Positions 41,889 through 61,780 of a DNA stretch of 64,000 nucleotides are shown here, piece by piece. How positions within the stretch are numbered: position 1 is the first letter of the stretch; every line of letters begins with the position of its first letter. The notes beneath the pieces are model-generated. The model did no database searches, was not told the origin of the DNA, and saw only the letters and a list, made by a program, of their open reading frames with translations. The translations under genes were made by a program, and so were the position numbers. Where the stretch lies: positions 2,306,959-2,370,958 of the forward strand of contig OW818651.1 of NCBI GenBank assembly GCA_942492885.1, written 5' to 3'. The DNA comes from an uncultured Eubacteriales bacterium. Lineage in GTDB: Bacteria > Bacillota > Clostridia > Christensenellales > CAG-138.

Positions 41889-43970
41889 TTGCCTAGAGAT
41901 ACTTCACTTGAAATGACCCGCAACATCGGGATCATGGCGCATATCGACGCCGGCAAAACCACGACGACTGAGCGAATCTTGTACTACACAGGCAAGATTC
42001 ATAAGATCGGCGAGGTGCACGAGGGAGCCGCCGCCATGGATTATATGATCCAGGAACAGGAGCGCGGCATCACGATTACGTCCGCCGCAACGACTGCTTA
42101 CTGGCGTTCGCACCGCATCAACATCATCGACACGCCCGGCCACGTGGATTTCACGATGGAAGTCGAGCGTTCGCTTCGCGTACTCGACGGCGCGGTTGCC
42201 GTCTTCTGCGCAAAGGGCGGCGTAGAGCCGCAGTCCGAGACGGTTTGGCGCCAGGCAAGAAAGTACGGCGTGCCGTGCATTGCCTATGTCAACAAGATGG
42301 ACATCACGGGTGCGAACTTCGAATACGTCGTTCAGATGATGCGCGATCGCCTTGGCGCAAACGCGCTGCCCATCCAGCTACCCATCGGCGCAGAGGGTGA
42401 TTTCCGCGGCATCATCGACCTTGTGGCGATGAAGGCGGAGGTTTACTACAACGACGACGGCACGGATGTGCGCGAGGAGGAAATCCCCGCGGAAATGCTG
42501 CCGATGGTCAAAGAACAGCGCGCAAAGCTGCTGGATTCCATCATTGAAGAAGACGAAAACCTGATGGAGCGCTATTTCGGCGGTGAATGGTTTACGGCGG
42601 CGGAGTTGATTCCCTGCATCCGTAAGGCGACGCTTTCCGGCAGAATCGTGCCCGTCACCTGCGGTACCAGCTACCGCAACAAGGGTGTGCAGCCGCTGCT
42701 AAACGCGATTGTCGACTATCTGCCCAGCCCGCTTGACATCGAGCCCCCCAAGGGTACCGATAGAGACGGCGAAGGCGAATTTGTGGTCGAACCGCGTGAC
42801 GACGCGCCGTTTGCCGCACTTGCGTTCAAGATTCTCTCCGACCCCTTTGTCGGCAAGCTTTCGTTCATCCGCGTCTACAGCGGAACGCTCAAGAGCGGTT
42901 CCTATGTATACAACGCGAGCAAAGGCAAGCGCGAGCGCGTTGGCCGCATCATGATGATGCACGCCGATACCCGCACGGAGATCGAAGAAGCGCACGCGGG
43001 CGACATTGTCGCGCTTGTCGGCATGAAGGACACCAGCACGGGTGACACGCTCTGCGTGGAGAGTCATCAGCTTCTGCTTGAGAGCATGGATTTCCCGGAA
43101 CCCGTCATTCAGGTTGCCATCGAGCCCAAGACGAAGGCCGGCCAGGAAAAAATGGGCCTGGCGCTCGTCAAACTCGCCGAGGAGGATCCCACCTTCCGGA
43201 CCTATACGGATCCGGATACCGGGCAAACCATCATCGCGGGCATGGGCGAGCTGCATTTGGAAATCATCGTCGATCGTATGATCCGCGAGTTCCATGTGGA
43301 AGCGCGCGTGGGCAACCCGCAGGTTTCCTACAAAGAAAGCATCAAGGCCCCCGTCAAAGCGGATTGCCGCTATGTCCGCCAGTCCGGCGGTCGCGGCCAG
43401 TACGGCCATTGCGTCATCGAACTTGCTCCGCGTGAACCGGGAGCCGGCTACGAGTTTGTCGACAAGATCGTCGGCGGCGCGATTCCGAGAGAATACATCC
43501 CCGCGGTTGACAAGGGCATGCGCGAAGCACTCAAGAGCGGCAAGCTCGGCGGCTACGAAGTGGTCGACGTGTCGGCGACACTGCTGGACGGCTCCTATCA
43601 CGAGGTTGACTCCTCTGAAATGGCGTTTACCATCGCAGGATCGCTCGCCATCAAAGAAGCGCTCGAAAAAGCGCAGTGCTCGCTGCTTGAGCCGATGATG
43701 AAGGTGGAAGTGCTCGTTCCGGAAGACTACCTTGGCGACGTGATGGGCAACATCACCTCCCGCCGCGGCAAGCTCAGCGGCATGGAAACCCGCCAGAACG
43801 TTCAGGTGATCGACGCGCTCGTGCCGCTCTCTGAAATGTTTGGCTATGCTACCGACCTTCGCAGCCGTACGCAGGGGCGCGGAACCTTCACGATGCAGTT
43901 TGCGCATTATGAAGAGGTGCCCAAGTCGATTGCAGAGAACGTTGTCGGCAAGAAGGAATACAAGCTGTAA
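41889..43970 (+). CDS. fusA: elongation factor G
   Basis: [21 protein letters not shown]. 693 aa. TTG start gives the usual N-terminus before TRNIGIMAH. Confidence 0.95.
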
Positions 43971-44042
43971 GCAACTTTCAACTGCCAAAATGGCATTGAG
44001 CAATATTATCGTTTTAACGATTGAAAGAAAGAGGAGATTTTT

Positions 44043-45257
44043 ATGGCAAAGGCAAAATTCGAACGCAATAAGCCGCACGTAAACGTCGGCACCATCGGTC
44101 ACGTTGACCACGGCAAGACGACCTTGACGGCGGCGATCACCATGGCGCTGTCGCAGCAGGGCGAAGCCAAGGCGATGCGCTATGACGAAATCGACAAAGC
44201 GCCGGAAGAAAAAGCGCGTGGAATCACGATCAACACCGCGCACGTTGAGTACGAGACGAAAGCGCGCCACTATGCGCACGTCGACTGCCCAGGCCACGCG
44301 GACTATGTCAAGAACATGATCACCGGTGCCGCCCAGATGGACGGCGCGATCCTGGTTGTGAGCGCGGCGGACGGCCCGATGCCCCAGACCCGCGAGCACA
44401 TCCTGCTTGCGCGTCAGGTTGGCGTGCCGTACATCATCGTGTTCATGAACAAGATCGATCAGGTTGACGATCCGGAACTGCTTGAGCTCGTCGAGATGGA
44501 AATCCGCGAACTGCTGAGCACGTATGAATTCCCGGGCGACGATATCCCGATCATCAAGGGCAGCGCGTTGCAGGCGATGGAAGCATTGATCGCAGGCAAA
44601 AAGGCTCTGGAAACACCGGAGTGCAAGTGCCTGTTTGACCTGATGGACGCAGTTGACAGCTATATCCCGACGCCGGAGCGCGCGGTTGACAAACCGTTCC
44701 TCATGCCGGTGGAAGACGTCTTCACCATCACGGGTCGCGGCACGGTCGCGACGGGCCGCGTGGAACGCGGAACCGTCAAGATCAGCGAAACCGTCGAGAT
44801 CGTCGGTCTCGCGGAAGCCACCCGTTCGGTTGTTGTGACCGGCGTTGAAATGTTTAGAAAACAGCTCGATCAGGCGATGGCAGGCGACAACGTCGGCCTT
44901 CTGCTGCGCGGCGTGCAGCGCAGCGACATCGAGCGCGGTCAGGTTCTGGCTAAGCCGAACTCGATCCACCCGCACACCCATTTCATGGGTCGCGTGTACG
45001 TGTTGACGAAGGAAGAAGGCGGCCGTCACACCCCGTTTTTCACGGGCTACCGTCCGCAGTTCTACTTCCGTACAACGGACGTGACGGGTTCCGTCGAGCT
45101 GCCCACGGGCGTTGAGATGGTTATGCCTGGCGACCACATCGACATGAACATCCAGCTGATCACGACGATCGCGATCGAGCCGGGCCTGCGCTTCGCTATT
45201 CGCGAAGGCGGCAGAACCGTTGCCTCCGGCGTCGTCACCGAGATCCTAGACAAATAA
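44043..45257 (+). CDS. tuf: elongation factor Tu
   Basis: [21 protein letters not shown]. 404 aa. Confidence 0.97.
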
Positions 45258-46985: not shown

Positions 46986-48776
46986 ATGAAAAAAACGTTA
47001 CTATGTGTGCTTCTTTGCCTCATGGGCTGCTTTTTTTTAAGCGGGTGTGTGAAGCCGCCGATTCCGGAACCGAAAAACATCATGCAGCCGACACAGGCGC
47101 TGTTTGACGGATTGGACTCGCTCAACCCAAAGGGAATTTCGAAGCAGGATAACCAGCTTGGGCAGGAGCGCTACTATATTGTCGTGGATGACGGGCTTGG
47201 CATGAAGGGGTTTGTTTCGACTTTTTGCCAGAGCTATCGCGCGGCGATCACCGCTATCTCGGGTGTGAGTATGAGCAGCGAGAGCACCTGCGTTCGCGCG
47301 AGTGATCTCGTAAACGAGTATCCAACCGCGACGAACGGCGCAAGGAGTTTTTTTGAAGAGGCAGTAAATGCACAATTCTTCCAGTCCAAGAGCAACGACG
47401 CGGCTTCCGTAATTCAGGAGATGACGCAGGAGTTTAGCCGGAATCCCGATCAGGTGATGATTCTGGTTTCGGACATGATGATTCCAACCGAAGACGATTG
47501 CAGCGAGGCAGCAAAAGCCCTGCAGACAGCCGTCATCACACCGGAGCATACGACGATGGGTATCATCGGCATCATGGGCGACTTCCGCGGCACGATTGAA
47601 AACCTGCCGGTCAGCCCGACGACGGGATATAAGCGCAAGATCAGCGACTATATGGTCAAGGACGCGGATGCGAACGGGAATTTTAAGCATCCGCTGTACA
47701 TACTTTTCTTCGGCAATGAACAGGTTGTGCTCAACGCGATGGAGAAGACGATGAGCTCGCTTGAGCAAAGCGCTGTGTTCGATATGGAGCAAGATGTCAA
47801 AGCGCTGTATCTCACAGAGTATGACATCACGCGAAGAGACAAGGACGACATCATCACAAAATTCAATCTTGGTTATCAGGGATACAACGATGCGGAATAT
47901 CCCGCGCGGTTTCTGATCCGCGGCATGAGCGATGCGTCCGGCAAAGTAAAATATGAATCCACGACGCCGGTCAACGAAACGTATCAGCAGATGCTAAGCG
48001 ACCTGCCCATCGCAAAGCTCTATACGGAGGAGCGTGGAACTGCGGAGAAAAACGTCAAAATCCGCTGCACAGTTCCGTTTACATTGATCGACTCGTCGTT
48101 GAATGGCGCCACGATATCGGACAGCAGCAACTTCGTTGTGTCAGCACAAGATCTGAAGATCGAACGGACGGATTATTCCATCACCACAGAGGTTCTCGTG
48201 TTGGATTACAGCGAGACGGAGGCGGGCAAGGTACAGGCCGACTGGGTGCCCGCGGATGCAACGATGATCAGCGTTGCGAGTGCGGATATTGATGCGAGCT
48301 GCAAACGGGTCGATGTCGAGTTGAGCGTAGACACAGCCCTGCTCGATAAGGATGAGCCATTGCTATGTAAAGTGCGTGTGAGTATATCGGCGCAGCCCAA
48401 GTGGGATGCGATCGAGAAACTCTATGATGCTTCGTGGTTAAAAACCTGGGAATTGAACCTCGAGCAGTTCGATAACGAATCGATCTGCTTTGGACAGGTG
48501 GAGACTTCGGCGCGCTTTACGGCGGCGACCACCGCAAAAACTCCCTTCCTCTATAGTCTGGTCTATCTGGGACTTACGGAGGAGCAGATGAAGCAGGTGG
48601 ATGAAGCGATCAGCAGCAAGACGGCGGATTGTGTGCAGACGACGATGTTTGGGATCGTCGTGCGCGATGTTCCGATCAGATACAACGGCGACTATTCATG
48701 GAATTATGATGAGAGCTTTGGTGGCTGGGCATTCAGCGAAGAACAGGCAGAAATCATTCGCGCAGCGATTGATTGA
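46986..48776 (+). CDS. lipoprotein with possible degenerate vWA-like core (gene 1 of five-gene operon)
   Basis: Signal peptide with lipobox LSGC (MKKTLLCVLLCLMGCFFLSGC). YYIVVDDGLGMKGF ... QVMILVSDMMIPTED ... TTMGIIGIMGDF follows the beta-strand pattern of a vWA/Rossmann-like domain, but the MIDAS DxSxS motif is not intact. Confidence 0.5.
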   Translation: MKKTLLCVLLCLMGCFFLSGCVKPPIPEPKNIMQPTQALFDGLDSLNPKGISKQDNQLGQERYYIVVDDGLGMKGFVSTFCQSYRAAITAISGVSMSSESTCVRASDLVNEYPTATNGARSFFEEAVNAQFFQSKSNDAASVIQEMTQEFSRNPDQVMILVSDMMIPTEDDCSEAAKALQTAVITPEHTTMGIIGIMGDFRGTIENLPVSPTTGYKRKISDYMVKDADANGNFKHPLYILFFGNEQVVLNAMEKTMSSLEQSAVFDMEQDVKALYLTEYDITRRDKDDIITKFNLGYQGYNDAEYPARFLIRGMSDASGKVKYESTTPVNETYQQMLSDLPIAKLYTEERGTAEKNVKIRCTVPFTLIDSSLNGATISDSSNFVVSAQDLKIERTDYSITTEVLVLDYSETEAGKVQADWVPADATMISVASADIDASCKRVDVELSVDTALLDKDEPLLCKVRVSISAQPKWDAIEKLYDASWLKTWELNLEQFDNESICFGQVETSARFTAATTAKTPFLYSLVYLGLTEEQMKQVDEAISSKTADCVQTTMFGIVVRDVPIRYNGDYSWNYDESFGGWAFSEEQAEIIRAAID

Positions 48777-48808
48777 AGCACGGAAATATACACGGGAGGG
48801 TGATAACG

Positions 48809-49366
48809 ATGAATGGGAATGTGAAAAAAAGGGTTAGCGCGCGCGTGATCTGGACACTCATTCTGGCGGCTGCGCTTGCGTGGTTTCCGCCGACTTTGTA
48901 CCATGACTGGATCTATGCGAGGTTTTTTCTAGAGGATTCAGCGAAGGATATCGCAAACCAATTCTTGAACGGTACGCAGTGGATCCATCTCGGCGCGATT
49001 GTTGCGATCTGGCTGCTCAACCTTGTCTTCTTCATCATCAATCAAGCAAAAGGCGACAGCGGTAATCGCCTCATGGGACGGACATGGCTCCAGAACCTGT
49101 TTAACATTGTGCTGATTGCGCTGAGCGTTGCGGCGATGGTAGGTTATCGTTATGCAATCTCTTCTGAAAGCTGGATTGGCTTGTTCTTTGGAACGGCGGA
49201 CAGCATCAAAGCGATTGTCTGGATGCCATACTACGTCCTTTTGGCCTGCGGATTATTCCTCTGGTGTTTTTGCAGAAGGGCAGCGCCAGCGACCAACAGC
49301 CCCGTTACGTGCCTGGTCGCGAAATGGTTTGACAAACGTATGACGCGCGCGGAACGCACGCGCTGA
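48809..49366 (+). CDS. 4-TM membrane protein (gene 2)
   Basis: ATG 48809 follows a GGGAGGG RBS. Four hydrophobic helices. Confidence 0.6.
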   Translation: MNGNVKKRVSARVIWTLILAAALAWFPPTLYHDWIYARFFLEDSAKDIANQFLNGTQWIHLGAIVAIWLLNLVFFIINQAKGDSGNRLMGRTWLQNLFNIVLIALSVAAMVGYRYAISSESWIGLFFGTADSIKAIVWMPYYVLLACGLFLWCFCRRAAPATNSPVTCLVAKWFDKRMTRAERTR

Positions 49367-49381
49367 GAAAGAGAGTACTGT

Positions 49382-50974
49382 ATGAAGAAATTTGTACTTG
49401 TCGCAATAGGCGGAACGGGCATGCGCGTGGCGCAGTCCCTCGTTGCGCTGGCGGCGTCCGGCTTTTTGAGCGATCTTTGCGGAGCGGATTCAAACTATCT
49501 GCTCGAAATCCGGCTTGTCGATCTCGACATCGTTGCGGGCAGTGACAAGATTGAGCTTGAGGAGATGATCCGCACAGTCAACGAGGCGATCCCGCAGCTC
49601 TCCGTCATTGTGGACGAGAATACGGCGGAGCACCGCTGGAAGGCAAAGGGCATCGACGGAATGATGAATCTACAGCCGCCGATCGATGACCGCAGCACGA
49701 TCAACGACCTTGTGCGCGAAGGGTTTTTGTCCGAGCCCGAGTCACTTGCCTATCACGCGTTGTTTGCCGAGGACGACCGCACGATGATCCTGCGCCGCGG
49801 CTGCAAAGGCCGCCCACGCATCGGCTCGTTGCTCTGGGCGGAGCACTTCGACCTAGACTGGAAAAACCGCAGCGGGTTCTGGCAGTCCATCTTCGGCGAC
49901 ATCGGCACGGATGACGAATTGCGCGTCATGTTCGCGGGTTCGGTCTTCGGCGGCACGGGCGCCAGCGGCACGCCGACATTGGCGCAGAAATTCATCCGCG
50001 CCTGCCGCAAGGGCGACATCGGCAACACCGCACCGTTTGCGAAGCACGTTGCGCTGACATTGATGCTGCCGTATTTCGATGTCGGTCAGGATACCGATGT
50101 CGACAGCGGACTCTTCTCAATCAACAGCAAGATGGCGCTGAAATATTACGAAACCTCCGAGATTCTAACCGAGGTGGAGTTTGCCCAGTTCGTCGGCGAT
50201 GACCGCCGCCAAATGGAGAAGAAGGACGAGGAAGGCGCGTGGAAACGCGTGCGCCTGGATCGCAACAGCCGTGTGGACGAAGGGCAGAACGATCCTTCCA
50301 TGCCCGCCGAGCTGATGGCTGCCATCGGCGCTTGCCGGTACTTTGCGGGCGACATCCCCAAGGCGGACAATGTTTTCCGGAAGGTCTATGTTCCGCTGAA
50401 ATGGAGCACCGCGAATTCGGAGCAGAGCGTTCCGCCGGAGGAAGCAGTTCCGCTGAACAGCTTTGACTATTTCCCCGTCTCCAACGGCGGCGCGGATGCG
50501 GGAAGCGTCCGCTCCGTGAGCGATTATATTCTGCGGCTCGAGCGCTTTTGCCTGATGCTGAGCAGTTATTATCGCACCAGTGCGGCGATCAAGACGTCGT
50601 GGAACTACCGGCCGGAGGTGTTTCGCACCGTCTGGAAGAAGCAGAAAGATCTACTGGATACGTATGACAGCCGGATCGACGGCGTGGGATCGGCTCTCGC
50701 GTTTGCCGAGAGTATGTTCCGCTGGCTGGAGGAGCTGGATCACCATGGCATGCACGATCTACTGAAGATTGAGGGCGACGAGAAGCGCAACACGCCGCAC
50801 ATACAATCGGCCGTGAATGACGCGGCACGGGAAGGCTCGACCAAGCTCGACCTGCTCGGCATCGCCTGCTCAGACATCACAACAAAGATGAACTCGGCGC
50901 GTGTAGACCCGCAGGGCGCAACGAAATATTTCGTTTCCTCCCTGATGGAGTGCTGCGTGCTCCGCGCGCTGTAA
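49382..50974 (+). CDS. FtsZ/tubulin-superfamily GTPase-like protein (gene 3)
   Basis: VLVAIGGTGMRVA resembles the T1 loop GxGGxG. RRGCKGRPRIGSLLW resembles the FtsZ T3 GAGANPEVGR. MFAGSVFGGTGASGTPTLAQ resembles the tubulin signature GGGTG(S/T)G. The C-terminal ~300 aa is unassigned. Confidence 0.6.
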   Translation: MKKFVLVAIGGTGMRVAQSLVALAASGFLSDLCGADSNYLLEIRLVDLDIVAGSDKIELEEMIRTVNEAIPQLSVIVDENTAEHRWKAKGIDGMMNLQPPIDDRSTINDLVREGFLSEPESLAYHALFAEDDRTMILRRGCKGRPRIGSLLWAEHFDLDWKNRSGFWQSIFGDIGTDDELRVMFAGSVFGGTGASGTPTLAQKFIRACRKGDIGNTAPFAKHVALTLMLPYFDVGQDTDVDSGLFSINSKMALKYYETSEILTEVEFAQFVGDDRRQMEKKDEEGAWKRVRLDRNSRVDEGQNDPSMPAELMAAIGACRYFAGDIPKADNVFRKVYVPLKWSTANSEQSVPPEEAVPLNSFDYFPVSNGGADAGSVRSVSDYILRLERFCLMLSSYYRTSAAIKTSWNYRPEVFRTVWKKQKDLLDTYDSRIDGVGSALAFAESMFRWLEELDHHGMHDLLKIEGDEKRNTPHIQSAVNDAAREGSTKLDLLGIACSDITTKMNSARVDPQGATKYFVSSLMECCVLRAL

Positions 50975-50996
50975 AGACGGATACGGAGGCAAAGTT

Positions 50997-53900
50997 ATGT
51001 CGTTTTATCACTGGTTCTCGTCACACCCGAATGAAATCGATCTCAGCGGCGGCATCTACAAGATGCAGGATATCGCCAAAGAGCTGCGCATCGTAGACGC
51101 CAAGCAGGAAGCGCGGCCGAAGCAGACGGATTTCCGGCGGATCAGTTCCGTGCCGGATATCTGGAGCCAGCACCGGCTGTTTGAGATGCTGCTGCTCAAC
51201 AAGGCGGAAGACCCGAGCTATCTGGAGTATGAGGCGATTGCAAAGCGCGAATGGCGCGCAATGGTTGCGCTGCTTGTGCTTGCGGAGTCGTATGGCGTCA
51301 AGGTGCATACGAAACAGATTCGATTCTCTGATTCCGTGAGCAGCGCGTATCTGCGCGCGGCATACAGTACCCGTCCAAACAGCGATCGATGGCCGAGCAT
51401 GGAGATTTACTACATTGAGGCCGGGGATATGCAGTATCCCATCGCGATGTCTTCTCCAACGGTGCACGTGATCCCGACCAAGGACGCGTGGCGTAACCTC
51501 AGGATGGTGTATCCGGGTCGGATTCCGTGGATCACGGACAATCAGGTCCATTCACCGGTTTTGGACGACGACGGTCGCGCGACTCCGTTCCAGCTTGGCG
51601 AAAAGGAGGCGGACAAGACCCCCGCTCTTATGCCCGTGCACGCGCTGATGCTGCAACGCTGGCTGATGAAATATCGCGATGACCTCGCGGCGCAGCAGCG
51701 CCTGCAAGGTGCCGCGGCAACGCTGCAAAGTGTGCGCCTGTTGAGCGATTATGAAAAAGCGCTGTCGGAGGCGTTCCGCCTCGAAGCGCAGCGCATGCCG
51801 AATATGATGAGCTTCTTTACCGCCGCGGAACAGCAGGACGGCATGAAGATCGGAGATCTGCACGTCCCGAAAAACCTCCGCATCTTCCTCGATCGCGCGT
51901 TTTATTCTGTGATCGATCAGGCTTCGTCTCTGCCGGAGGTGCTCGATACGCATCGCTTTGCGGGCGGCATCGGCAAGGAATGCCTGGTTAGCAAGAAGCA
52001 GCTCGACGGTAAATGGACGCACTTCTTTGTCACGATGCCGGTCACCGGAGAATTCTGGAAGCTTTGGCACGACAACGAGGACTTAATTCCCGAATATCAT
52101 CTCACCTGCACATTCTCGCCGGACGGCGTACGCGTGGACAAGATCAAAGCATCCATCGTCATCGGCGATATCACGTTCTCCAAGACGTATTCTGTGGCGC
52201 AGATCGATTCGGATCCATGGAGAAATCTGTGCGTCGCGGGTATTTGGCCGCGCCAGAAGATCTCGGATTGGAAGGATTATTATCTGTTCTGTAACGCGAT
52301 CAACGGCTATCGTGTGGAGCCGGAACACGAGGATATGATCACCTATGAGAAGACGTATTCCGACAAAGAGGGGTTGGAGGGCACGCTCAACTACTATAAG
52401 CTCAACAGAGCGCCGGAGAGCTGCAAGCTCTTCAAGGATAACAAGCTCATCGGCTTTATGCAGGTTCGCGAGCGGCAGATGATCCTTCCCGGTGAAAAGA
52501 CGAGCGTCTACCGCGCGTCGATCGACTTTGGTACCTCCGCAACCACGCTTTACGGCGGGGTGGATGACAACGAGCCCGGGAAAATTTCCGGCATGAATAT
52601 GTGGAGTTTGCCGCTGATGAATACAATTGACGGGGCGGGGATTGAAACTTCGAGGTTGGAGAGATACTTCTTCCCGCCTTTGCCAGTGCCGTTGCATAAA
52701 GTGTCATTGAAGCAGAGCCGGGCTGAAGCAACAACGGTTCCTTTTGGTATCCTGTTAAAAAGTGCCGCTGATGTGAAGGCATATCCAGATTGCATTCCGT
52801 TGCAGACAGTTTTAGCCGATGCTTTGGATACGAATGGTCCCAGACAGATGCTTGCAGACAGCTGGATTTTCTTCCGTGCTTTCATGCAAGCGAGGACAAT
52901 TGTATTATGGCCTAAGCTGCATTCGAACTTAAAATGGGATCAATCATCGCAGTTAAATCAATATCGTGTTCAAACAATTTTGACAGAAATCATGATGATG
53001 GTCGCGCTTGAAGCTCGTGTGAATCATTGCGGTTCATTATCAATCACAGCATCCTATCCATTATCCTTTGAGATTAGCATGCGCGACTCATACTTTGAAG
53101 CACTGAATGCCATGTTGGATATAACTGCAACACTGACTGGATTGAAAGTAGTTCCGCCACCCGTAAGTGATAATAAACCAATAACAAAAATAGCACCTTT
53201 GGTAGGAAGCATTACGGAAAGCGAGGCCGTCTACCGATATTCTGTAGCGCAGGATAGTTACAATCAGAATTATTTCGTCATTGATATCGGCGGTGGATCA
53301 ACCGATATGTTCTTAAGTTTGATAGACGATAATCATCGAAGGAATTCTTACTCGACATCGCTTGGATTTGGAGCACGCGCAGTTTTGATCAACAAACTTC
53401 GACAGAATGGCAACTTGCTTCTACACAGATTAGTCCATGAATCAGACCTTGTGAAAACTAGTGCAGTCCGAGACTATGGTCGATTTATCCTTGAACGAAC
53501 TTCAAGTTTTGGACATAGTTTTGTGGAAGACTTGTTCTCGATGCGGATTGAGAGAGATTTGAATAATCCTGCTTCAGCAGGCGCGCCTGAAAACTACGGC
53601 GAAATGTTTATCAACACTTGCGCAGCAAGCAATCTTGATCCGGCGCAAGTAAAAAACGATCCGCAAGCTCACAAAGAAGGAGTTTCCTTCTTGGAGCTAA
53701 AGAAACGAATAGCTTTCTTCTTGGCTGCGAGCGTTTGGCTATCTGGCCTCATGATTCGCGGCGGTCAGAACACTGGAATGAATGTTTCACTGCTATTTGC
53801 TGGCAACGGTTCTAAGATGATCCGCTGGTTGTCTCCAGACTTAGACCGAATTCGCTATTTTATCACGCTAATGTTCCAGCAGGCATCGGGTACCGCGATC

Positions 53901-54326
53901 ACCCGCGAGCAAATGAGCTGTCGGTTTTCCCTCAAACCCAAAGAAGAGGTGGCGTACGGATCACTGGCAGACTTTCCGACGGGATTTGTTGCGGAAGAAG
54001 GTGGTCCAACGCAGCAAGTGACGTTTGGCGGAGCAAGTATCAATGCAGACGATTCGGGTGCGTTCCATCCGTTGCACTACATCACGACGAATATTAATAC
54101 GGACTCAAAAGAGTTTGCAAACTTCATGCATGAATACAGAAGGATTGCATCGCAAAGCTTCGGTTGGGAGTTTTTCGAGAATGAGTATGACCTGAAAATT
54201 CTGTCAAACGGCGGGGTAAATGCGGCAATCAATCGACATCAGCCGGACAACGGATACTTCCTGAACGCTGTCGAGGTGGTCGCTGGATTCTATCTGGGTA
54301 ACGACAAGAAGGACTTAGCGAACTAA
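50997..54326 (+). CDS. 1109-aa protein: unknown N-terminal ~500 aa plus Hsp70/actin-fold (ASKHA) ATPase domain (gene 4)
   Basis: The ordered Hsp70 NBD motif series is present: SIDFGTSATT (phosphate-1), ITASYPLSFE (VPAYF-like), ITESEAVYRY (EPTAA-like), YFVIDIGGGSTDMF (phosphate-2), LLFAGNGSKM (adenosine), KPKEEVAYGSL (NPDEAVA-like). Confidence 0.65.
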   Translation: MSFYHWFSSHPNEIDLSGGIYKMQDIAKELRIVDAKQEARPKQTDFRRISSVPDIWSQHRLFEMLLLNKAEDPSYLEYEAIAKREWRAMVALLVLAESYGVKVHTKQIRFSDSVSSAYLRAAYSTRPNSDRWPSMEIYYIEAGDMQYPIAMSSPTVHVIPTKDAWRNLRMVYPGRIPWITDNQVHSPVLDDDGRATPFQLGEKEADKTPALMPVHALMLQRWLMKYRDDLAAQQRLQGAAATLQSVRLLSDYEKALSEAFRLEAQRMPNMMSFFTAAEQQDGMKIGDLHVPKNLRIFLDRAFYSVIDQASSLPEVLDTHRFAGGIGKECLVSKKQLDGKWTHFFVTMPVTGEFWKLWHDNEDLIPEYHLTCTFSPDGVRVDKIKASIVIGDITFSKTYSVAQIDSDPWRNLCVAGIWPRQKISDWKDYYLFCNAINGYRVEPEHEDMITYEKTYSDKEGLEGTLNYYKLNRAPESCKLFKDNKLIGFMQVRERQMILPGEKTSVYRASIDFGTSATTLYGGVDDNEPGKISGMNMWSLPLMNTIDGAGIETSRLERYFFPPLPVPLHKVSLKQSRAEATTVPFGILLKSAADVKAYPDCIPLQTVLADALDTNGPRQMLADSWIFFRAFMQARTIVLWPKLHSNLKWDQSSQLNQYRVQTILTEIMMMVALEARVNHCGSLSITASYPLSFEISMRDSYFEALNAMLDITATLTGLKVVPPPVSDNKPITKIAPLVGSITESEAVYRYSVAQDSYNQNYFVIDIGGGSTDMFLSLIDDNHRRNSYSTSLGFGARAVLINKLRQNGNLLLHRLVHESDLVKTSAVRDYGRFILERTSSFGHSFVEDLFSMRIERDLNNPASAGAPENYGEMFINTCAASNLDPAQVKNDPQAHKEGVSFLELKKRIAFFLAASVWLSGLMIRGGQNTGMNVSLLFAGNGSKMIRWLSPDLDRIRYFITLMFQQASGTAITREQMSCRFSLKPKEEVAYGSLADFPTGFVAEEGGPTQQVTFGGASINADDSGAFHPLHYITTNINTDSKEFANFMHEYRRIASQSFGWEFFENEYDLKILSNGGVNAAINRHQPDNGYFLNAVEVVAGFYLGNDKKDLAN

Positions 54327-54341
54327 GAAAGGAGCAACGAA

Positions 54342-55631
54342 TTGAAACGCAAACATAGATTACTCGCAATCGGCGCGATGGCGCTGCTGCTACTTGCGCT
54401 GTGCCTACCCGTTCTGTCGGGCGCGCTCGCGGCGGAAGAGGAGAAGCCGCTGATCGTGCCCATCGGGAAGAATACTGAGGTGTTGGGTGAGGACGGTCTG
54501 CCAATCGGTACGCTCAAGTCCAATCAAACGTTCGTGCCGGTGAGTGGCGAGAGCCCATACGACGTGATCGTGATCTACGACCAAGCAGCGGCAAACAAAG
54601 CCGCAAAGAGCGAAATCATCGCGGGAATGGCACTGGTGCTCTTAAGCTATGCGGACGCGGCAGAAGCAACGGAGCCAACGACAGAGACTGCCGGAGCAAA
54701 TCTGCCAACACAGGGTTGGATTGATGCAAACCTCGTCGTAATCGCTTTGTCAGCGCAACACGCGGTAGATGCAAACACGATAGCATCGAAAGAAGCGGAA
54801 ATTGTTTCCTTGAAGAATGCTGCTGACGAACCCGGCGGCAATAGCGGCGAGAACGGTAACGTGCCAACAGATATAAAATCCTCCGGCATCTTCAGCGCGG
54901 AAAAGATGGAAGTCTGGGTTCCGGTTGCGGCAATCGCGCTTGGGGTGCTCGGTATCGGTCTACTGGCATGGCTTGCGATATCGACAGCAACGACTGCTTG
55001 GGACACGGAGAGCCAAACAAGACTGCTCACGAAGATGAACGACCAGCTTTCTGCCGGGTTGAAAGCAATCTCTCCGCTGAAAGTCGAGCAGTTCGCTTGG
55101 CCGCGAGAGGGGCACGTAAAGCTCGCGCCGGACATAATAGAGCAGCTAGCGGCGGTTGCCGGGCAAAACAGCGCTTACAGTGCGCGTTATCAGGAGCCTG
55201 AGGTTCCAGTAGTGGTTGAACCCGTCCGGATTCCGGAAGGCGAGGAGCCCGACCTGCTCCAACTCGCAAACAGTCTTGCGGGGGTTGCCTCCGCCGCCGA
55301 ATGGCACGCGTTGGTGCGGGATGCGGGTTGGCGCGCGGTTCTCCTGCAGGCAAACCCAACGGAGAAGGGCACCTACATAGCAGACGACAGCGGATACTCC
55401 ATCATCGGTTGCCTGATGCGCACACAGGATGCGGAGCTTGCCTACGTTGTGCCGTCCTATCAGGACCCCAACGCCAGCGAACAGCGTTGGGGTGAGTTTT
55501 ACGCCGTAAGTGAAGATATGTCGGTGAGAAACTATCGCGTAGATGCGCTGGCCGTGATGTATATCGAGCGGGGCACCTTCTTCCTGCAAAAGTCGAAAGG
55601 CAAGCTTACGCGCAGACCGCAGCGTTTCTGA
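54342..55631 (+). CDS. bitopic membrane protein with signal peptide (gene 5)
   Basis: TTG start 7 nt after AAAGGAG. N-terminal signal sequence, one internal TM (VWVPVAAIALGVLGIGLLAWLAI), and a ~200-aa C-terminal domain of unknown family. Confidence 0.55.
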   Translation: MKRKHRLLAIGAMALLLLALCLPVLSGALAAEEEKPLIVPIGKNTEVLGEDGLPIGTLKSNQTFVPVSGESPYDVIVIYDQAAANKAAKSEIIAGMALVLLSYADAAEATEPTTETAGANLPTQGWIDANLVVIALSAQHAVDANTIASKEAEIVSLKNAADEPGGNSGENGNVPTDIKSSGIFSAEKMEVWVPVAAIALGVLGIGLLAWLAISTATTAWDTESQTRLLTKMNDQLSAGLKAISPLKVEQFAWPREGHVKLAPDIIEQLAAVAGQNSAYSARYQEPEVPVVVEPVRIPEGEEPDLLQLANSLAGVASAAEWHALVRDAGWRAVLLQANPTEKGTYIADDSGYSIIGCLMRTQDAELAYVVPSYQDPNASEQRWGEFYAVSEDMSVRNYRVDALAVMYIERGTFFLQKSKGKLTRRPQRF

Positions 55632-55672
55632 AGAATCATATTACAACAACTTTGTTTGAAGAACGATACATG

Positions 55673-55698
55673 CAAAGCCGCCTATCAGGGCGGCTTTG
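55673..55698 (+). terminator. terminator of the five-gene operon
   Basis: CAAAGCCGCC / TATCA / GGGCGGCTTTG hairpin followed by TGTGTT. A second hairpin (55709-55735) with a T-run on the minus strand serves the convergent gene. Confidence 0.6.
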
Positions 55699-55763
55699 TG
55701 TTGCGCACAAAAAAGCCACCCGAAAGCGAGTGGCTCAGTAGCGCAAAAGGATGAAAATCCCGT

Positions 55764-58051: not shown

Positions 58052-58795
58052 ATGAATCAACCCCTTGTTATTACTGACGAATCTTATCAAATTGCCTGGG
58101 CAAAAGCTATAATCGAGTTGAAGAGAAATAATTGGGACATATGGAACTTGGTAGTTCAAATTAAGAATCCGACCCTAAATGACGATCGAATCACTGGCAT
58201 TTTGTGTGAGTTTGCTGGAACACACGGGTTAATTACTCCTGAACATGTAGAACATACGATTTTTCCAACTCGGTTGTATCGAAAATACCCTGAAAAGGCA
58301 TTGCTTTACAGAGCATATAAGAAGTATTTTACGCTGACGAGAAAAATGGATCACAGTGGGTGGGGCACATACTTTCAAAGTATGATTCATTATCCGACTG
58401 AAAATGGATACATTGATCAGTTGGGTAATATTATTGAGAAAATCAATGAAAGGCCAATTACATATAAAACTGCATATGTCATGCTAATACCTGAACCAGA
58501 GAGAGATCGTAATAAGATAATGGCAGCTCCGTGCCTGAACTATGTTGCCCTGCAACTTGAGAATGAAGAAGAAGCAAGGCACGGAAGACAAATAAGTTTA
58601 CTAGCAGTATATCGAAATCACGATTTTATGCATCGTGCATTTGGCAATTATCTTGGTCTATGTAGTCTCCTGAAATATATATGTGCGGAGACTGATTCTA
58701 CAATCGGTTGTATCACTTGTATCTCTTCGCATGCGTTTGTTGAGAATCAAAAAAACGAGCTAATAGCTATAGCAAGAGAGATTACCAGAGGATAA
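58052..58795 (+). CDS. thymidylate-synthase-fold (ThyA/dCMP-hydroxymethylase-like) enzyme
   Basis: YIDQLGNIIEKINERP aligns with ThyA HIDQITTVLNQLKNDP. MAAPCLNYVALQL aligns with LAPCHAFFQFYV (catalytic Cys). LLAVYRNHDFMHRAFGNYLGLCSLLKYICAE aligns with [30 protein letters not shown]. The N-terminal part is divergent. AGGAGGG RBS. Confidence 0.6.
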   Translation: MNQPLVITDESYQIAWAKAIIELKRNNWDIWNLVVQIKNPTLNDDRITGILCEFAGTHGLITPEHVEHTIFPTRLYRKYPEKALLYRAYKKYFTLTRKMDHSGWGTYFQSMIHYPTENGYIDQLGNIIEKINERPITYKTAYVMLIPEPERDRNKIMAAPCLNYVALQLENEEEARHGRQISLLAVYRNHDFMHRAFGNYLGLCSLLKYICAETDSTIGCITCISSHAFVENQKNELIAIAREITRG

Positions 58796-58796
58796 A

Positions 58797-59837
58797 ATGG
58801 AAAATTATACTTTAAGAGAATTAAAAATAGAGGTTACACATCGATGCCCGTTAGCTTGCGTTCATTGCTCCAGTAATGCTCATTCGGAAAACACAAGAGA
58901 AATGCCGTATGATAAGTGCCTTGAAATAATTCATAATGCACATCAAATGGGTGTTAAAGAAATTGCTTTTTCTGGTGGAGAGCCTTTATGTTGGAACGGA
59001 ATCGTAGAAGCTGTGAAGGTTGCACATGATATGGGCATCAAAACAGTGATGTACTCTTCGGGTAATGCAAATAATGCCAAAGCAATCTTTGAAGAACTAA
59101 CCAAAGCAGGATTACAAAAAATCGTGTTTAGCATATATTCGTGCGATGAGGCGGAGCACAATAAAATAACCCGAATTGCAGATAGCTTTCAAAATACTAT
59201 TAGTGCAATCGAATGCGTTAAGAACTTAGGAATACAGCCGGAAGTTCATTTTGTGGCATTAGCAAGTAACTATAAAAGCATAGAGAAGTTAGTGTACTAT
59301 CTTAAATCAATTGGAGTGGATCGTACAAGCATATTAAGATTTGTCCCGCAAGGTAGAGGAAGATTGATTCATAAGCAAGGAGTTATGACAAAGAAGCAAA
59401 GCCTTGAGTTGTCCCGAATGATAAAAAGACTTTGGGAGAAAGGATTCGACATTAGGACAGGTTCACCTTATAATGTTTTACTGATTAATGAAGAACCCAA
59501 ATGCATGGCAGCAAAAGATAGAATGATAATATCACCAGATTTGGATGTCTTTCCTTGCGATGCGTTTAAGCAAATTACAGCAGAGCAAATTACGACCCCA
59601 GTGAAGTTTTCAAACTTAGGCGAGGCTACACTACAAGAGTGCTGGGATAATTCATCTTACTTTCGAGAGGTACGGAAAGCTCTTAGCGAAATCACAGAAC
59701 CACCGTGCGTAAGCTGTGGAGCAAATAAAAAATGTCTTTCGGGCTGTCTGGCGCAAAAGTTTTTGGAGTATAATACACTATACAAGAATCCTGACCCTGC
59801 TTGTCTGCTTGGAGGAGATTGTGGTGGTATACAGTAA
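58797..59837 (+). CDS. radical SAM enzyme with C-terminal SPASM domain
   Basis: CPLACVHC (CX3CX2C). C-terminal CVSCGANKKCLSGC (CX2CX5CX3C) plus upstream Cys residues. Starts 1 nt after the stop of the previous gene. Confidence 0.85.
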   Translation: MENYTLRELKIEVTHRCPLACVHCSSNAHSENTREMPYDKCLEIIHNAHQMGVKEIAFSGGEPLCWNGIVEAVKVAHDMGIKTVMYSSGNANNAKAIFEELTKAGLQKIVFSIYSCDEAEHNKITRIADSFQNTISAIECVKNLGIQPEVHFVALASNYKSIEKLVYYLKSIGVDRTSILRFVPQGRGRLIHKQGVMTKKQSLELSRMIKRLWEKGFDIRTGSPYNVLLINEEPKCMAAKDRMIISPDLDVFPCDAFKQITAEQITTPVKFSNLGEATLQECWDNSSYFREVRKALSEITEPPCVSCGANKKCLSGCLAQKFLEYNTLYKNPDPACLLGGDCGGIQ

Positions 59838-61017: not shown

Positions 61018-61051
61018 TATCCTTGTCGACGCACGCACATGAAAAATCCCC
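60967..61051. repeat. 85-bp direct repeat, copy 1
   Basis: CCCCCCACTCCACGACCCGTAGACCCCACCACCACCTCCACTGATGTATAATATCCTTGTCGACGCACGCACATGAAAAATCCCC. GC-rich relative to its surroundings. Confidence 0.9.
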
Positions 61052-61216
61052 ATAAGAATGCATGCCAAAGTAACGAACCGAGACGCGGGATAAGTCGAAA
61101 GTTATTAACGTTTAAAGCTTTGAAAACGCATGAAAAAGGAGCAACCTTTCGATTGCTCCCAGAGGGTGCTAATCAGCTGTTTGTTTTGTGTTACAACGAT
61201 GCACTCCTTAGTATGT

Positions 61217-61780
61217 TTACTTCTTATATCCGCACTTGGGACATGCGCCGTTTTCGTTTAGAGCAATACCGCACAACGGGCAGCGGTCAATGGCGTTGTG
61301 AGTTTCGAATACTTCGGAAGCCGCGTTAACGCCGCTTGTGAAGGTCAGCTTGGCAATGTTCAGCTTGTCCTTCAGCAAATCATACACAATCTTGATCATG
61401 CCTTCAACGGTCATAGTCTCTTTGGTTACAACCAAACGGCATTCCGGATATGCGGTTGCAAGCGCGGTTTTGAAGGCGGGTCCCTTCATTTTGTTGGTCG
61501 GGGCACCATCTTTAATCCCCTGCTTCTCATAAACATCGAGGATCGCAGGTAACAGGGGATCATCTTCGCGGAGGATCAGCGCATGGTCGAAGTTTCTCAG
61601 CACATCCCACGCGGTCTTCTGAATTTCATTGCAGGGGAAAACCATGTTGACACCGGTATTGACGGAATCTTCCACCTCGATCGTCAGAATGCCGGTGTGC
61701 CCATGTAAGTACTGTGCTTCGCCTTTGAATCCATAGAATCTATGCGCGTACTGTAGGTCTAGCGTTGTGATACTTCTCAT
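61217..61780 (-). CDS. 6-pyruvoyl-tetrahydropterin synthase / QueD-fold protein with C-terminal zinc ribbon
   Basis: YAHRFYGFKGEAQYLHGHTGILTIEVE...NFDHALIL matches the PTPS/QueD pattern (aaH...c..lHGH.y.v.v...lDH..L). An appended CPLCG...CPKCG follows. AGGAG RBS. Confidence 0.7.
   Translation of the reverse strand: MRSITTLDLQYAHRFYGFKGEAQYLHGHTGILTIEVEDSVNTGVNMVFPCNEIQKTAWDVLRNFDHALILREDDPLLPAILDVYEKQGIKDGAPTNKMKGPAFKTALATAYPECRLVVTKETMTVEGMIKIVYDLLKDKLNIAKLTFTSGVNAASEVFETHNAIDRCPLCGIALNENGACPKCGYKK

Follow-up and report, generated by a model that had tools for sequence, protein, structure and literature searches.

A five-gene operon from an uncultured Eubacteriales bacterium encodes a tubulin/FtsZ-like GTPase, a giant Hsp70-like protein and three envelope proteins, and the cassette looks like an undescribed short-form branch of the FtsZl1 (Tubulin_2)/vWA membrane systems. 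Our preferred reading, to which we give a probability of roughly 0.45, is an envelope-spanning NTPase module of the FtsZl1/vWA branch with an accessory role in envelope stress or conflict rather than in cell division. The window, meaning the whole 64,000-nucleotide stretch of DNA that was analysed, contains the following features, named g1 to g5 in order:

46986..48776, plus strand: g1, predicted 596-aa vWA-like lipoprotein (ORF, lipobox, alignment, profile)
48809..49366, plus strand: g2, predicted 185-aa 4-TM membrane protein (hydropathy, position in cassettes)
49382..50974, plus strand: g3, predicted 530-aa tubulin/FtsZ-superfamily GTPase (profile, alignment, AF2/Foldseek)
50997..54326, plus strand: g4, predicted 1109-aa Hsp70-like ASKHA protein (motifs, AF2/Foldseek)
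54342..55631, plus strand: g5, predicted 429-aa bitopic membrane protein (hydropathy, family search)
55672..55699, plus strand: terminator-like hairpin with a 12-bp stem and 4-nt loop (sequence, RNAfold)

The initial annotation had described a co-directional operon with gaps of 15-32 nt closed by a hairpin, and the ORFs and junction coordinates bear this out: the five genes are separated by stop-to-start gaps of 32, 15, 22 and 15 nt, and a purine-rich ribosome-binding site lies upstream of every start. An alternative TTG start for g2 exists at 48773; the ATG at 48809 is preceded by GGGAGGG and agrees with the N-termini of g2 homologues. The hairpin is G+C-rich and begins 41 nt past the g5 stop; RNAfold gives the whole segment about -23 kcal/mol. 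Its U tail is weak, and it was absent from the plus-strand output of a simple terminator scan. A second hairpin, at about 55713-55736, is that of a convergent minus-strand gene.

The GTP-binding loops proposed for g3 from its sequence coincide with conserved positions. In an alignment of 36 sequences the motifs IGGTG (9-13), GCKGRPRIG (140-148) and FGGTGASG (189-196) correspond to invariant columns, with G10, G11, G13, D49, G140, G148, G186-S195, Q302 and E310 as the invariant residues. PF13809 (Tubulin_2) matched 22/36 homologues and PF00091 (Tubulin) 15/36, while neither matched the window protein itself. The AF2 model (pLDDT 84, pTM 0.90) comprises a GTPase domain at about 1-320 followed by an all-alpha-helical C-terminal domain at about 380-524, and its best Foldseek matches in the PDB are tubulins (E ~4e-4, probability 1.0, ~280 columns, TM ~0.25). 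Neither alignment nor model contains an FtsZ_C/tubulin_C domain, a T7 loop or a coiled coil, and g3 and its orthologues measure 460-560 aa. By profile and structure, g3 is a member of the tubulin/FtsZ superfamily and resembles Tubulin_2 (FtsZl1-like) proteins most.

The Hsp70 motif series noticed in the C-terminal part of g4 was likewise upheld. In a cross-phylum alignment of seven sequences, D510-F-G-T..T516, K646, E741, D763-x-G-G-G-S-x-D770 and G936-N-G938 are invariant, following the order of the DnaK nucleotide-binding domain (NBD): phosphate-1 Asp, then Lys and Glu, then the phosphate 2 (DxGGG(S/T)xD) and adenosine (GxG) motifs. With the AF2 model (pLDDT 71), the top 50 Foldseek matches in the PDB were all Hsp70 NBDs (E ~1e-6), and a viral structure library returned Hsp70 homologues only. 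The model suggests an alpha/beta region (~1-300), a beta-rich region (~300-495) and an Hsp70-like NBD (~500-1000). Unlike DnaK, g4 has no PF00012 match and no substrate-binding domain, carries large low-confidence insertions at the places of subdomains IB and IIB, and begins with some 500 aa of novel sequence for which we found no PDB sequence match and no detectable relatives; the operon also lacks a J-protein and GrpE. The only Pfam match of the window protein was a sub-threshold one to Ppx-GppA; distant homologues matched MreB, FtsA, EutA and Alp7A models, one MreB_Mbl match reaching the gathering score, and an exhaustive profile search yielded 1042 clusters at 50% identity. By motif and model, g4 is a putative cytoplasmic protein with an Hsp70-like ASKHA NBD and no Hsp70 substrate-binding domain.

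The three envelope proteins also agree with their first descriptions. The predicted lipoprotein g1 has an N-terminal hydrophobic segment and an L-S-G-C lipobox at residues 18-21 (lipidated Cys21), and it appears to combine an outward-facing, vWA-like N-terminal domain with a C-terminal region of about 350 aa without fold assignment. Orthologues align over D-x-S/T-x-S-M-x-G-F, TDL and IIG motifs, in the same order as the DxSxS (MIDAS), TD(L/G) and (I/V)G(V) strands of vWA lipoproteins and adhesins such as the TRAP I-domain, to which g1 is also alike in being extracytoplasmic and lipid-anchored, as judged from its sequence features. The vWA assignment is borderline, resting on these motifs and on a match of the N-terminal-region profile to the TRAP vWA domain 4hql (E=0.023; three further TRAP entries match), whereas the Pfam vWA model matched no single family member. 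All diderm-lineage orthologues have DxS/TxS, but it is missing from the clade of the window protein, whose degenerate MIDAS reads DDGLG; the site is intact in most lineages. In g2, four hydrophobic segments correspond to four predicted TM helices, and essentially all cassettes have a protein of 128-210 aa with 3-4 TM segments at this position, with topology kept and sequence poorly so (mean column identity 16%). Hydropathy gives g5 a signal-like N-terminal segment and one TM at about 195-213, bounding about 165 extracytoplasmic residues that include low-complexity linkers; the C-terminal domain that follows, about 130 aa, is cytoplasmic and conserved. The g5 family is confined to Clostridia-type cassettes (25 matches, some of them paralogues in which the C-terminal domain stands alone).

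The order g1-g2-g3-g4 was found in 47 of 87 fetched loci, and g1 and g4 occur together in 43. This core is present in Bacillota (Christensenellales, Oscillospiraceae, Negativicutes), Bacteroidota, Ignavibacteriota, Calditrichota, Cyanobacteriota, Alphaproteobacteria and Acidobacteriota, at least seven phyla in total, and because the same order recurs across them it is not due to chance. Identity to the window protein falls in parallel for g3 (56, 37, 25, 20, 18, 18%) and g4 (41, 25, 23, 17, 18, 15%); the two are always neighbours, and their stop and start codons often overlap or nearly touch. Co-conservation of all five genes, as first supposed, holds for g1-g4 but not for g5, in whose place other cassettes carry unrelated fifth genes, among them a true HSP70 as an extra, separate gene in Calditrichaceae only; diderm cassettes have OmpA-like, CW_7 and TPR proteins at the periphery where Clostridia have the bitopic g5. 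The conserved unit is the four-gene core, with g5 a clade-specific addition. RefSeq labels g1, g2, g4 and g5 hypothetical, and none of the four is covered by a model in Pfam, NCBIfam or PADLOC.

The cassette is carried by mobilizable cyanobacterial plasmids and, in Bacteroidales, lies directly 3' of a relaxase and integrase in integrative mobilizable elements, one of which has an adjoining AbiEii; the g3-g4 pair occurs in 16 IMG/VR contigs, and TerD genes adjoin the cassette in one locus. Plasmids, mobilizable elements, IMG/VR contigs and the TerD neighbour together argue for an accessory, horizontally moved character, and the missing FtsZ C-terminal domain and T7 loop of g3 argue against a division gene set. 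Of the two candidate functions put forward in the initial annotation, a cytoskeletal or remodelling device and a conflict system, we favour the second in a wider form: the likeliest role is an accessory stress or conflict response at the envelope, for example to phage, to mobile elements or to damage of the envelope itself. Against a conflict role, we recognised no effector in the cassette (nuclease, protease, NADase or known pore former). Christensenellaceae synteny of a housekeeping kind (tuf, NUDIX, membrane protein, cassette, MraY-like gene, esterase) persists across species down to 68% g3 identity, a pattern like that of a cellular function passed on stably and vertically. This synteny also weighs against a conflict role, as does the scarcity of PADLOC matches in the flanks: few at E<=1e-5 among 146 flanking proteins from 25 loci, with several of the families looking generic (RtcR/PspF-type AAA regulators, a GlgB-described model). 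PADLOC had zero matches among the window proteins and one weak match of 33 residues in the Brevundimonas and Prevotella cassettes (PDC-M61B, E=0.0012).

In the envelope-spanning module, lipobox, TM and signal features would place g1 outside the membrane and g2 and, in this clade, g5 across it, while g3 and g4, which have no export signals, would lie on the cytoplasmic face; that peripheral genes vary with envelope type supports this layout. The outer vWA module may bind a protein or envelope ligand, through a MIDAS metal in most lineages; loss of the motif in this Christensenellaceae lineage would make binding metal-independent or constitutive. Ligand state would be relayed via the TM partners to g3, which may bind GTP and assemble at the membrane, and since it has no canonical T7 loop any assembly or hydrolysis would need a non-canonical contact. 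From constant adjacency, near-touching codons and parallel divergence we infer a g3-g4 complex; polymerisation and the direction of signalling are likewise presumed. Using ATP in the manner of Hsp70, g4 might clamp, remodel or dismantle the g3 assembly via its novel N-terminal domain, and the outcome would be a thresholded switch of membrane or envelope state.

In a less likely alternative, the cassette would be a housekeeping device, either membrane-remodelling or cytoskeletal, in which g3 and g4 would form membrane filaments or scaffolds anchored by g1, g2 and g5 and would shape or maintain the envelope (vesicles, septum-independent remodelling, placement of surface structures). Membrane remodelling was the original proposal for FtsZl1-vWA-OmpA operons (Makarova & Koonin 2010; PMC2875224; Biol Direct 5:33), and the combination of two cytoskeleton-type folds, the synteny across Christensenellaceae species, the absence of a toxin-like effector or significant PADLOC match and flanks without defence enrichment all fit such a device. 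It is harder to reconcile with carriage on plasmids and integrative mobilizable elements, with the absence from g3 of the T7 loop and C-terminal domain of canonical polymerisation, and with a patchy spread (at least 511 tblastn-confirmed g3 relatives among 185,579 species genomes, many without g4). The extracytoplasmic parts also diverge fast: g1 is 45% and g4 48% identical, against 74% for the MraY-like gene next to the cassette.

In myxobacterial gliding, the vWA lipoprotein CglB of Myxococcus works with MreB and MglA at Agl-Glt focal adhesions, and integrin-cytoskeleton coupling offers a second analogue. A comparable adhesion or surface-coupling machine, with g1 as an adhesin mechanically linked through the membrane to cytoplasmic NTPases, would suit the vWA-like lipoprotein with a MIDAS intact in most lineages, the TM partners, the actin-fold and tubulin-fold NTPases and the peptidoglycan-binding OmpA and CW_7 neighbours of diderm versions; we consider it improbable, as the cassette contains neither a motor (MotAB/TolQR-like) nor genes for pili or secretion, Pfam and NCBIfam scans detected no homology to gliding proteins, and the window's own clade has lost the MIDAS. 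Plasmids and phage genomes can be partitioned by tubulin-like (TubZ) as well as by actin-like (ParM/Alp7A) NTPases, but a role in segregating the DNA of a mobile element is scarcely credible here: carriage on mobile elements and IMG/VR contigs and a weak Alp7A_like_C match in one distant g4 homologue are outweighed by a cassette in which no DNA-binding adaptor was identified and two to three conserved genes encode envelope proteins, by a g4 three times ParM-type size whose structure fits Hsp70 NBDs and not ParM/actin, by the syntenic chromosomal location in Christensenellaceae and by a g3 tblastn search of 50,697 phage genomes that gave no match.

The envelope-spanning module is best compared with two described groups. 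Like the FtsZl1/vWA operons, it has a highly diverged GTPase domain with T1-T4 kept, no recognisable T7 or FtsZ/tubulin C-terminal domain and an alpha-helical C-terminus; a signal peptide or TM segment is common in the vWA neighbour, many partners are membrane-associated, OmpA-type neighbours occur in diderms and the distribution is patchy across phyla. Among the table entries compared, FtsZl1 proteins are 763-1208 aa with a long coiled coil, in contrast to the short, coiled-coil-free g3 family; the listed families (vWA, OmpA, GTPase, B1-B9) include no giant ASKHA protein, 4-TM protein or the present gene order, and the diverged P-loop GTPase and Ser/Thr kinases frequent there are absent from the window cassette. 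The second group, GAP1-N2-type DO-GTPase-centric conflict systems with tubulin or HSP70 themes (Kaur et al. 2020; PMC7159879; eLife 9:e52696), is also membrane-proximal, NTP-dependent and multi-gene, combines tubulin-domain proteins with vWA proteins (one vWA extracellular) or with HSP70-domain proteins lacking the peptide-binding domain, and is predicted to build regulated, cytoskeleton-like assemblies. The defining members of these systems, TRAFAC GTPases (one or two), GAP1 and FNIII-repeat proteins, are all missing from the window cassette, where g1-g5 contain no Walker A motif and no TRAFAC, GAP1 or FNIII Pfam match; of the two groups' proteins, the tubulin with a coiled coil, the P-loop GTPases and the FNIII proteins have no counterpart here. 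In the GAP1-N2-type systems the tubulin and HSP70 themes are described as not overlapping, whereas g3 and g4 are obligate neighbours, and their HSP70 is canonical, with GrpE and DnaJ, whereas the HSP70 Pfam model misses g4. The initial annotation knew of no described system with the tubulin-Hsp70 pairing. We found no description of this exact cassette, but comparative genomics had already linked tubulin-like proteins, vWA proteins and HSP70 in membrane-proximal systems, so the pairing is not wholly unprecedented: Additional file 5 of Makarova & Koonin (PMC2875224) shows a Magnetospirillum operon, amb2957-2961, with a 1626-aa DnaK-like neighbour, and the systems of Kaur et al. are related.

Five co-directional open reading frames occupy positions 46986-55631 of the window, all on the + strand and exactly as the initial annotation had described them. 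The genes and the hairpin that follows them are listed with their predicted products.

Genes and features of the operon
46986-48776, + strand: g1, vWA-like lipoprotein, 596 aa
48809-49366, + strand: g2, small transmembrane protein, 185 aa; a TTG at 48773 is an alternative start
49382-50974, + strand: g3, tubulin/FtsZ-like GTPase, 530 aa
50997-54326, + strand: g4, giant Hsp70-fold ATPase, 1109 aa
54342-55631, + strand: g5, bitopic membrane protein, 429 aa, TTG start
55672-55699, + strand: terminator-like hairpin, 12-bp G+C-rich stem, 41 nt past the g5 stop

Successive genes are separated, from stop to start, by 32, 15, 22 and 15 nt, and a purine-rich Shine-Dalgarno sequence lies 5' of each start. 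Of the terminator hairpin proposed for the end of the operon, the 12-bp stem was found (segment fold energy about -23 kcal/mol); its U tail is poor, and a simple terminator scan did not call it on the + strand. In an Rfam scan of the whole window no model reached its gathering score, which leaves the operon without a recognised riboswitch or leader upstream, and a promoter scan of the region upstream of g1 gave no convincing sigma-70 site. By simple hydropathy, g1 shows a lipobox (LSGC, Cys21), g2 has four hydrophobic segments, and g5 has a signal-like segment and a single transmembrane segment (~195-213); g3 and g4 have no hydrophobic segments. Single-sequence scans of g1-g5 against Pfam, NCBIfam and PADLOC produced only sub-threshold noise, and the assignments below come from homologue alignments and structural models.

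Homology searches detected 150 relatives of g3, the distant ones being 16-28% identical, about 500-545 aa long and carrying PF13809 (Tubulin_2) and/or PF00091. The window g3 alone has no Pfam match and phmmer against the PDB found nothing for it; in an alignment of 36 sequences, PF13809 was matched by 22 and PF00091 by 15 (E<=0.01). One relative scores 38 bits against a 27-bit cut-off. The T1 loop IGGTG (residues 9-13) and the T4 signature FGGTGASG (189-196) are invariant across the 36 homologues. Invariant columns further comprise G10, G11 and G13 of T1, a T2-like D49, G140 and G148 of T3, the T4 stretch G186-S-x-F-G-G-T-G-A-S195, and Q302 and E310, which we interpret as the T6/H7 position. 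When an AlphaFold (AF2) model of g3 (pLDDT 84, pTM 0.90) was compared with the PDB using Foldseek, all top matches were tubulins (probability 1.0, E ~4e-4, ~280 columns). The TM-scores were low (~0.25) because the C-terminal half of g3 differs from that of tubulins: past a helix at 308-321, the model is poorly ordered before it enters an all-helical domain (380-524). No predicted helix of g3 is longer than 26 residues, leaving the protein without an extended coiled coil. The 36-sequence alignment contains no conserved acidic loop of the NxDxxD/E type that would correspond to the T7 synergy loop, and neither FtsZ_C nor Tubulin_C was matched in Pfam by the window g3 or the aligned homologues. 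Taken together, the alignment and the model identify g3 as a genuine tubulin-superfamily protein of the Tubulin_2 kind, predicted to bind GTP and not to be a canonical polymerising FtsZ or tubulin.

The family of g4 came into view only with an exhaustive profile search, because word-indexed searching gave close relatives alone: 46 of them, all at least 38% identical, whether the query was g4 or a cross-phylum g4 alignment. The exhaustive search returned 1042 clusters (50% identity) at E<=1e-3 and 402 at E<=1e-10, most members being 1050-1350 aa long and matching in several stretches over their whole length. Pfam offers little for these proteins. The sole hint in the window g4 is a 20-bit Ppx-GppA match over the motif DIGGGSTD; three of eight distant homologues gave isolated MreB, FtsA, EutA or Alp7A matches over the phosphate-2 region, all below gathering score except one to MreB_Mbl (30.9 bits against 27). 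PF00012 was absent from g4 at E<=1 and from the eight homologues at E<=0.01, and phmmer against the PDB matched the phosphate-2 region of g4 only. An alignment of seven sequences from Clostridia, Bacteroidota and Ignavibacteriota contains, in order, the Hsp70-type catalytic set as invariant residues: phosphate 1 (D510-F-G..T516, including G512), K646, E741, phosphate 2 (D763-x-G-G..D770, with G765 and G766) and the adenosine motif (G936-x-G938). The top 50 PDB matches of the g4 model (pLDDT 71) in Foldseek are exclusively Hsp70 nucleotide-binding domains (NBDs; E ~1e-6), and viral Hsp70 homologues were matched in BFVD. The tubulin-like and Hsp70-like characters first proposed for g3 and g4 from loop and motif resemblances are thus both borne out, the former by homologue profiles and AF2/Foldseek, the latter by invariant alignment columns and Foldseek.

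Past the NBD, the g4 model has about 110 residues and no beta-sandwich substrate-binding domain. The first ~500 residues begin with an alpha/beta region, in which SVPDIW, EWRA and PIAxSSPT motifs are conserved, and continue into a beta-rich region; the conserved residues here are structural (P, W, Y), not catalytic. A profile search with these 500 residues against the PDB found no sequence relative, and the whole-model Foldseek lists are saturated by Hsp70 matches, so that no separate match to the N-terminal domain is visible. We also considered a resemblance of g4 to SrfB-like virulence factors and rejected it, PF07520 being matched neither by g4 nor by the eight distant homologues.

For g1, orthologues chosen by position were aligned and share D-x-S/T-x-S-M-x-G-F, then (V/I)(V/I)TDL, then (V/I)xIIG(V), an order that corresponds, at the level of sequence motifs, to vWA strand 1 with its metal-binding MIDAS motif (DxSxS), strand 4 and strand 5. 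When the N-terminal part was searched as a profile, the TRAP vWA domain 4hql came among the two best PDB matches, at only E=0.023, with three further TRAP entries at E 0.19-0.33; no single family member matched a Pfam vWA model. At the MIDAS position the window g1 reads D-D-G-L-G, so that DxSxS is absent, and the same loss (DDGLG) runs through the ~600-aa Christensenellales-type proteins. Of the orthologues that match the N-terminal profile, those from Negativicutes, Bacteroidota, Cyanobacteria, Proteobacteria, Acidobacteria and Calditrichota keep the motif intact, as does one version from Oscillospiraceae. Almost all orthologues have a lipobox. Of the lipoprotein with a degenerate vWA-like strand pattern in the initial annotation, the lipobox stands and the vWA assignment is probable.

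Across cassettes, the protein at the g2 position keeps its place, its size (128-210 aa) and its topology, with hardly any conservation of sequence; a MotA/ExbB-like stator was rejected for it, since the alignment has almost no sequence conservation and no conserved charged transmembrane residue. The g5 family is confined to Clostridia-type cassettes, and what is conserved in it, a cytoplasmic C-terminal domain of ~130 aa, is found as well in stand-alone paralogues just downstream.

Gene order in the g1-g4 core is kept in cassettes whose g3 is only 18-56% identical to that of the window. Elsewhere, the cassette comprises a lipoprotein of 435-690 aa, a small transmembrane protein, a tubulin-like protein of 470-560 aa and a giant protein of 1050-1350 aa. 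Scanning a single genome for each species yielded at least 511 relatives of g3 confirmed by tblastn. Among 87 homologous loci compared, g4 lies immediately downstream of g3 in 47, and 43 of those have a recognisable g1. Carriers in the Bacillota are Christensenellaceae and other Clostridia, Oscillospiraceae and Negativicutes (Selenomonadaceae, Phascolarctobacterium); others are Bacteroides, Prevotella, Ignavibacteria, Calditrichaceae, Cyanobacteria, Brevundimonas, Sphingomonadales and Acidobacteria. As g3 grows less identical to its window counterpart, so does g4, and in many cassettes the stop codon of one abuts or overlaps the start codon of the other, a pattern compatible with co-inheritance and co-translation.

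The fifth position is variable and g5 lies outside the conserved core; to count a fifth gene as part of the unit, as had been done initially, was an overstatement. Outside Clostridia, the place is taken by single-transmembrane or soluble proteins of 250-330 aa, and in Bacteroidales by a TPR protein. A Calditrichaceae cassette (locus L077) has two Hsp70-fold proteins, because a canonical HSP70 of 527 aa (L077:14136-15719; PF00012, E=1e-82) follows g4. Diderm cassettes are followed by OmpA-like or CW_7 peptidoglycan-binding proteins and, in one case, by two TerD genes.

Some relatives of g3 occur in other settings. A large subgroup from rumen Negativicutes (Selenomonadaceae/Quinella, loci L029-L087) has tubulin-like proteins of ~461 aa without g4 or a g1-type lipoprotein, accompanied by another recurring set of genes: those for ~480, 204 and 162 aa lie upstream and sometimes those for ~471 and 430 aa downstream (e.g. 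L050:8995-10380). At one of these loci (L029:7919-10389, Selenomonadaceae), there is a 4-nt overlap between the gene for an EcoRI-type adenine methyltransferase (PF13651, E=1.7e-121) and the start of the tubulin-like gene, the latter standing where a restriction enzyme would be. A phmmer search showed this methylase to be the only case in the 87 loci, and a link to restriction-modification was dropped as evidence. A Cytophagales homologue without g4 (L007:10001-11572) sits among GIY-YIG, AAA_15/AAA_21 ATPase and PDDEXK_2 genes, a setting resembling a defence island, with a weak g1-like ORF upstream (E=3e-6).

Evidence on the mobility of the cassette is mixed. It is found complete on mobilizable plasmids of Gloeothece verrucosa PCC 7822 (L088, NC_014503.1 39251-47534) and of Picosynechococcus strains (L089, NZ_CP016476.1), where PGAP labels g3 a 'tubulin-like domain-containing protein' or 'hypothetical protein' and nearly all other genes 'hypothetical protein'. 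These plasmid cassettes came from a query with the Brevundimonas g3; tblastn of the window's own proteins against plasmids and phages found nothing. In L088 the gene at the g1 position is on the opposite strand, and in L089 g4 is succeeded by genes for a 'prefoldin domain-containing protein' and a TM2-domain protein. At no fewer than two Bacteroidales loci checked (L005:5049-7783; L104:3945-6959), the cassette lies directly downstream of a MobA/VirD2-type relaxase and a tyrosine integrase, and we therefore read it as cargo of an integrative mobilizable element. Two further loci (L091, L105) repeat the gene-size pattern of L005 and L104, and AbiEii is encoded near the L005 cassette. The g3-g4 pair is present in 16 IMG/VR contigs, several Bacteroidales elements being filed there as viral. 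Stable inheritance is favoured, on the other side, by Christensenellaceae, where EF-Tu (99.5%) and synteny place the window lineage: species with g3 68-90% identical have the cassette amid unchanged neighbours, in the order tuf, NUDIX, membrane protein, cassette, MraY-like glycosyltransferase-4 and esterase-like ORF; in the window it is likewise accompanied by EF-Tu, NUDIX, glycosyltransferase-4 and esterase-like genes.

Searches against defence-system models returned little. The five window proteins had no match in PADLOC-DB v2.0.0 at E<=1, and ten proteins from Brevundimonas, Prevotella and Selenomonas cassettes gave a single one (33 residues, E=0.0012). Among 146 flanking proteins from 25 loci, pooled without a control set, there were a few sporadic matches, several of them to generic-looking families.

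The closest described relatives are the FtsZl1-vWA operons (Makarova & Koonin 2010, PMC2875224), which share with the cassette a diverged GTPase domain, a helical C-terminus, OmpA neighbours, membrane association and, probably, a vWA neighbour. The FtsZl1 family combines a diverged FtsZ-like N-domain, an extended coiled coil and an alpha-helical C-domain in about 760-1200 aa, and its members in the examined parts of the neighbourhood tables are all 763-1208 aa long with a coiled coil; g3 has the N-domain and the helical C-domain but is 530 aa long and lacks the extended coiled coil. The FtsZl1-type vWA linkage would be represented in the cassette by the DxS/TxS, TDL and IIG motifs of the g1 orthologues, the TRAP match reaching only E=0.023 and Pfam vWA models giving none. 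The accessory families of these operons (vWA, OmpA, GTPase, B1-B9) include no giant ASKHA protein, and the tables examined list a DnaK-like neighbour (1626 aa) in one Magnetospirillum operon only. The novelty initially seen in the tubulin/Hsp70 pairing was overstated, as it is not entirely without precedent. In the GTPase-centric conflict systems of Kaur et al. 2020 (PMC7159879), 'tubulin' and 'HSP70' themes are said not to overlap. What marks out those systems is a TRAFAC-class P-loop GTPase, or two of them, together with GAP1 and an FNIII-repeat protein; the cassette has none of these: no Walker A motif occurs in g1-g5, a single TKxD in g3 comes without a P-loop, and no GTPase or FNIII Pfam match was found. 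A full-text literature search, with subscription journals largely outside its range, found no paper describing the cassette, and the literature searched contained no experimental study of FtsZl1/Tubulin_2, sixteen years after the first description. The cassette is best classed as a variant of a kind that has been described computationally and is experimentally untouched.

FtsZl1/Tubulin_2 is the most divergent branch of the tubulin superfamily, and the cassette is a compact four-gene, phylogenetically broad form of it. The fixed partner of g3 belongs to a family of Hsp70-fold ATPases, about 1000 sequence clusters in size, for which neither Pfam nor NCBIfam has a model. The family as a whole is broad and unnamed, and it links two cytoskeletal/chaperone NTPase folds with a probable extracellular vWA domain.

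From the lipoprotein and transmembrane features we infer a layout with g1 and the g5 ectodomain external to the cytoplasmic membrane, g2 and g5 spanning it, and g3 and g4 at its inner face; the variable peripheral genes would adapt the module to monoderm or diderm envelopes. The GTP pocket of g3 is complete, but without a T7 loop the canonical head-to-tail contact is not available to it for activating hydrolysis. The T7 function would have to come from the helical C-domain or from g4, the obligate neighbour; otherwise, g3 would serve as a GTP-gated switch or scaffold. Hsp70 proteins couple ATP turnover to the binding and release of a partner. By analogy, g4 may do the same, its most plausible partners being g3 assemblies or the cytoplasmic tails of g2 and g5. 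The vWA module would engage a ligand outside, NTP-dependent assembly and remodelling would follow inside, and the output would be a changed state of the membrane or envelope, making the whole a thresholded transmembrane switch.

We give such a switch, with a role in stress or conflict (phage or mobile-element defence, damage response), a probability a little short of even (roughly 0.45); the plasmid and integrative-element settings speak for it, the near absence of PADLOC matches against it. That the cassette has a housekeeping role, as a remodelling or cytoskeletal device, is rather unlikely; the stable neighbours in Christensenellaceae speak for it, the mobile carriers against it. More ambitious and distinctly doubtful is the proposal that g1-g4 form an unrecognised, widespread envelope-spanning machine, in which an extracellular vWA sensor or adhesin is coupled in integrin-like fashion to a cytoskeleton-type NTPase pair and g4 drives or resets the assembly of T7-less g3. 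Such a machine would represent a new mobile class of anti-phage or membrane-damage response that builds membrane structure instead of killing enzymatically. Adhesion coupling as the role of the cassette, favoured by the vWA-like lipoprotein g1 and disfavoured by the lost MIDAS in the window g1, is improbable. DNA segregation, for genes found both on plasmids and at a constant chromosomal position, is very improbable indeed.

A role in defence or membrane repair would make the mechanism structurally new, and a housekeeping role would make the cassette a new bacterial cytoskeletal system. Some carriers can be cultivated and some cassettes lie on small plasmids (Picosynechococcus, Gloeothece, Brevundimonas, Terracidiphilus), so that whether T7-less g3 can assemble, what the Hsp70-like protein does to it and how this would be coupled to the extracellular vWA domain are directly testable.

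Three other features of the window may be recorded. A low-GC island at 58052-61780 (0.38-0.42 against ~0.55-0.60 elsewhere) encodes a 247-aa protein without a Pfam match, a radical SAM/SPASM enzyme, a fusion of a uracil-DNA-glycosylase-superfamily domain with a SocA/Panacea antitoxin domain and, on the opposite strand, a PTPS/QueD-like protein; the islet may serve DNA modification, a toxin-antitoxin function or defence. A second low-GC block (16955-19803, minus strand; 0.35-0.42) holds a GHMP-kinase-like gene and two ORFs without Pfam matches between the isoleucyl- and arginyl-tRNA synthetase genes. Finally, an 812-aa ORF on the minus strand (42699-45137), antisense to the EF-Tu gene (44043-45257) and the genes upstream of it, is almost certainly a spurious high-GC antisense frame.
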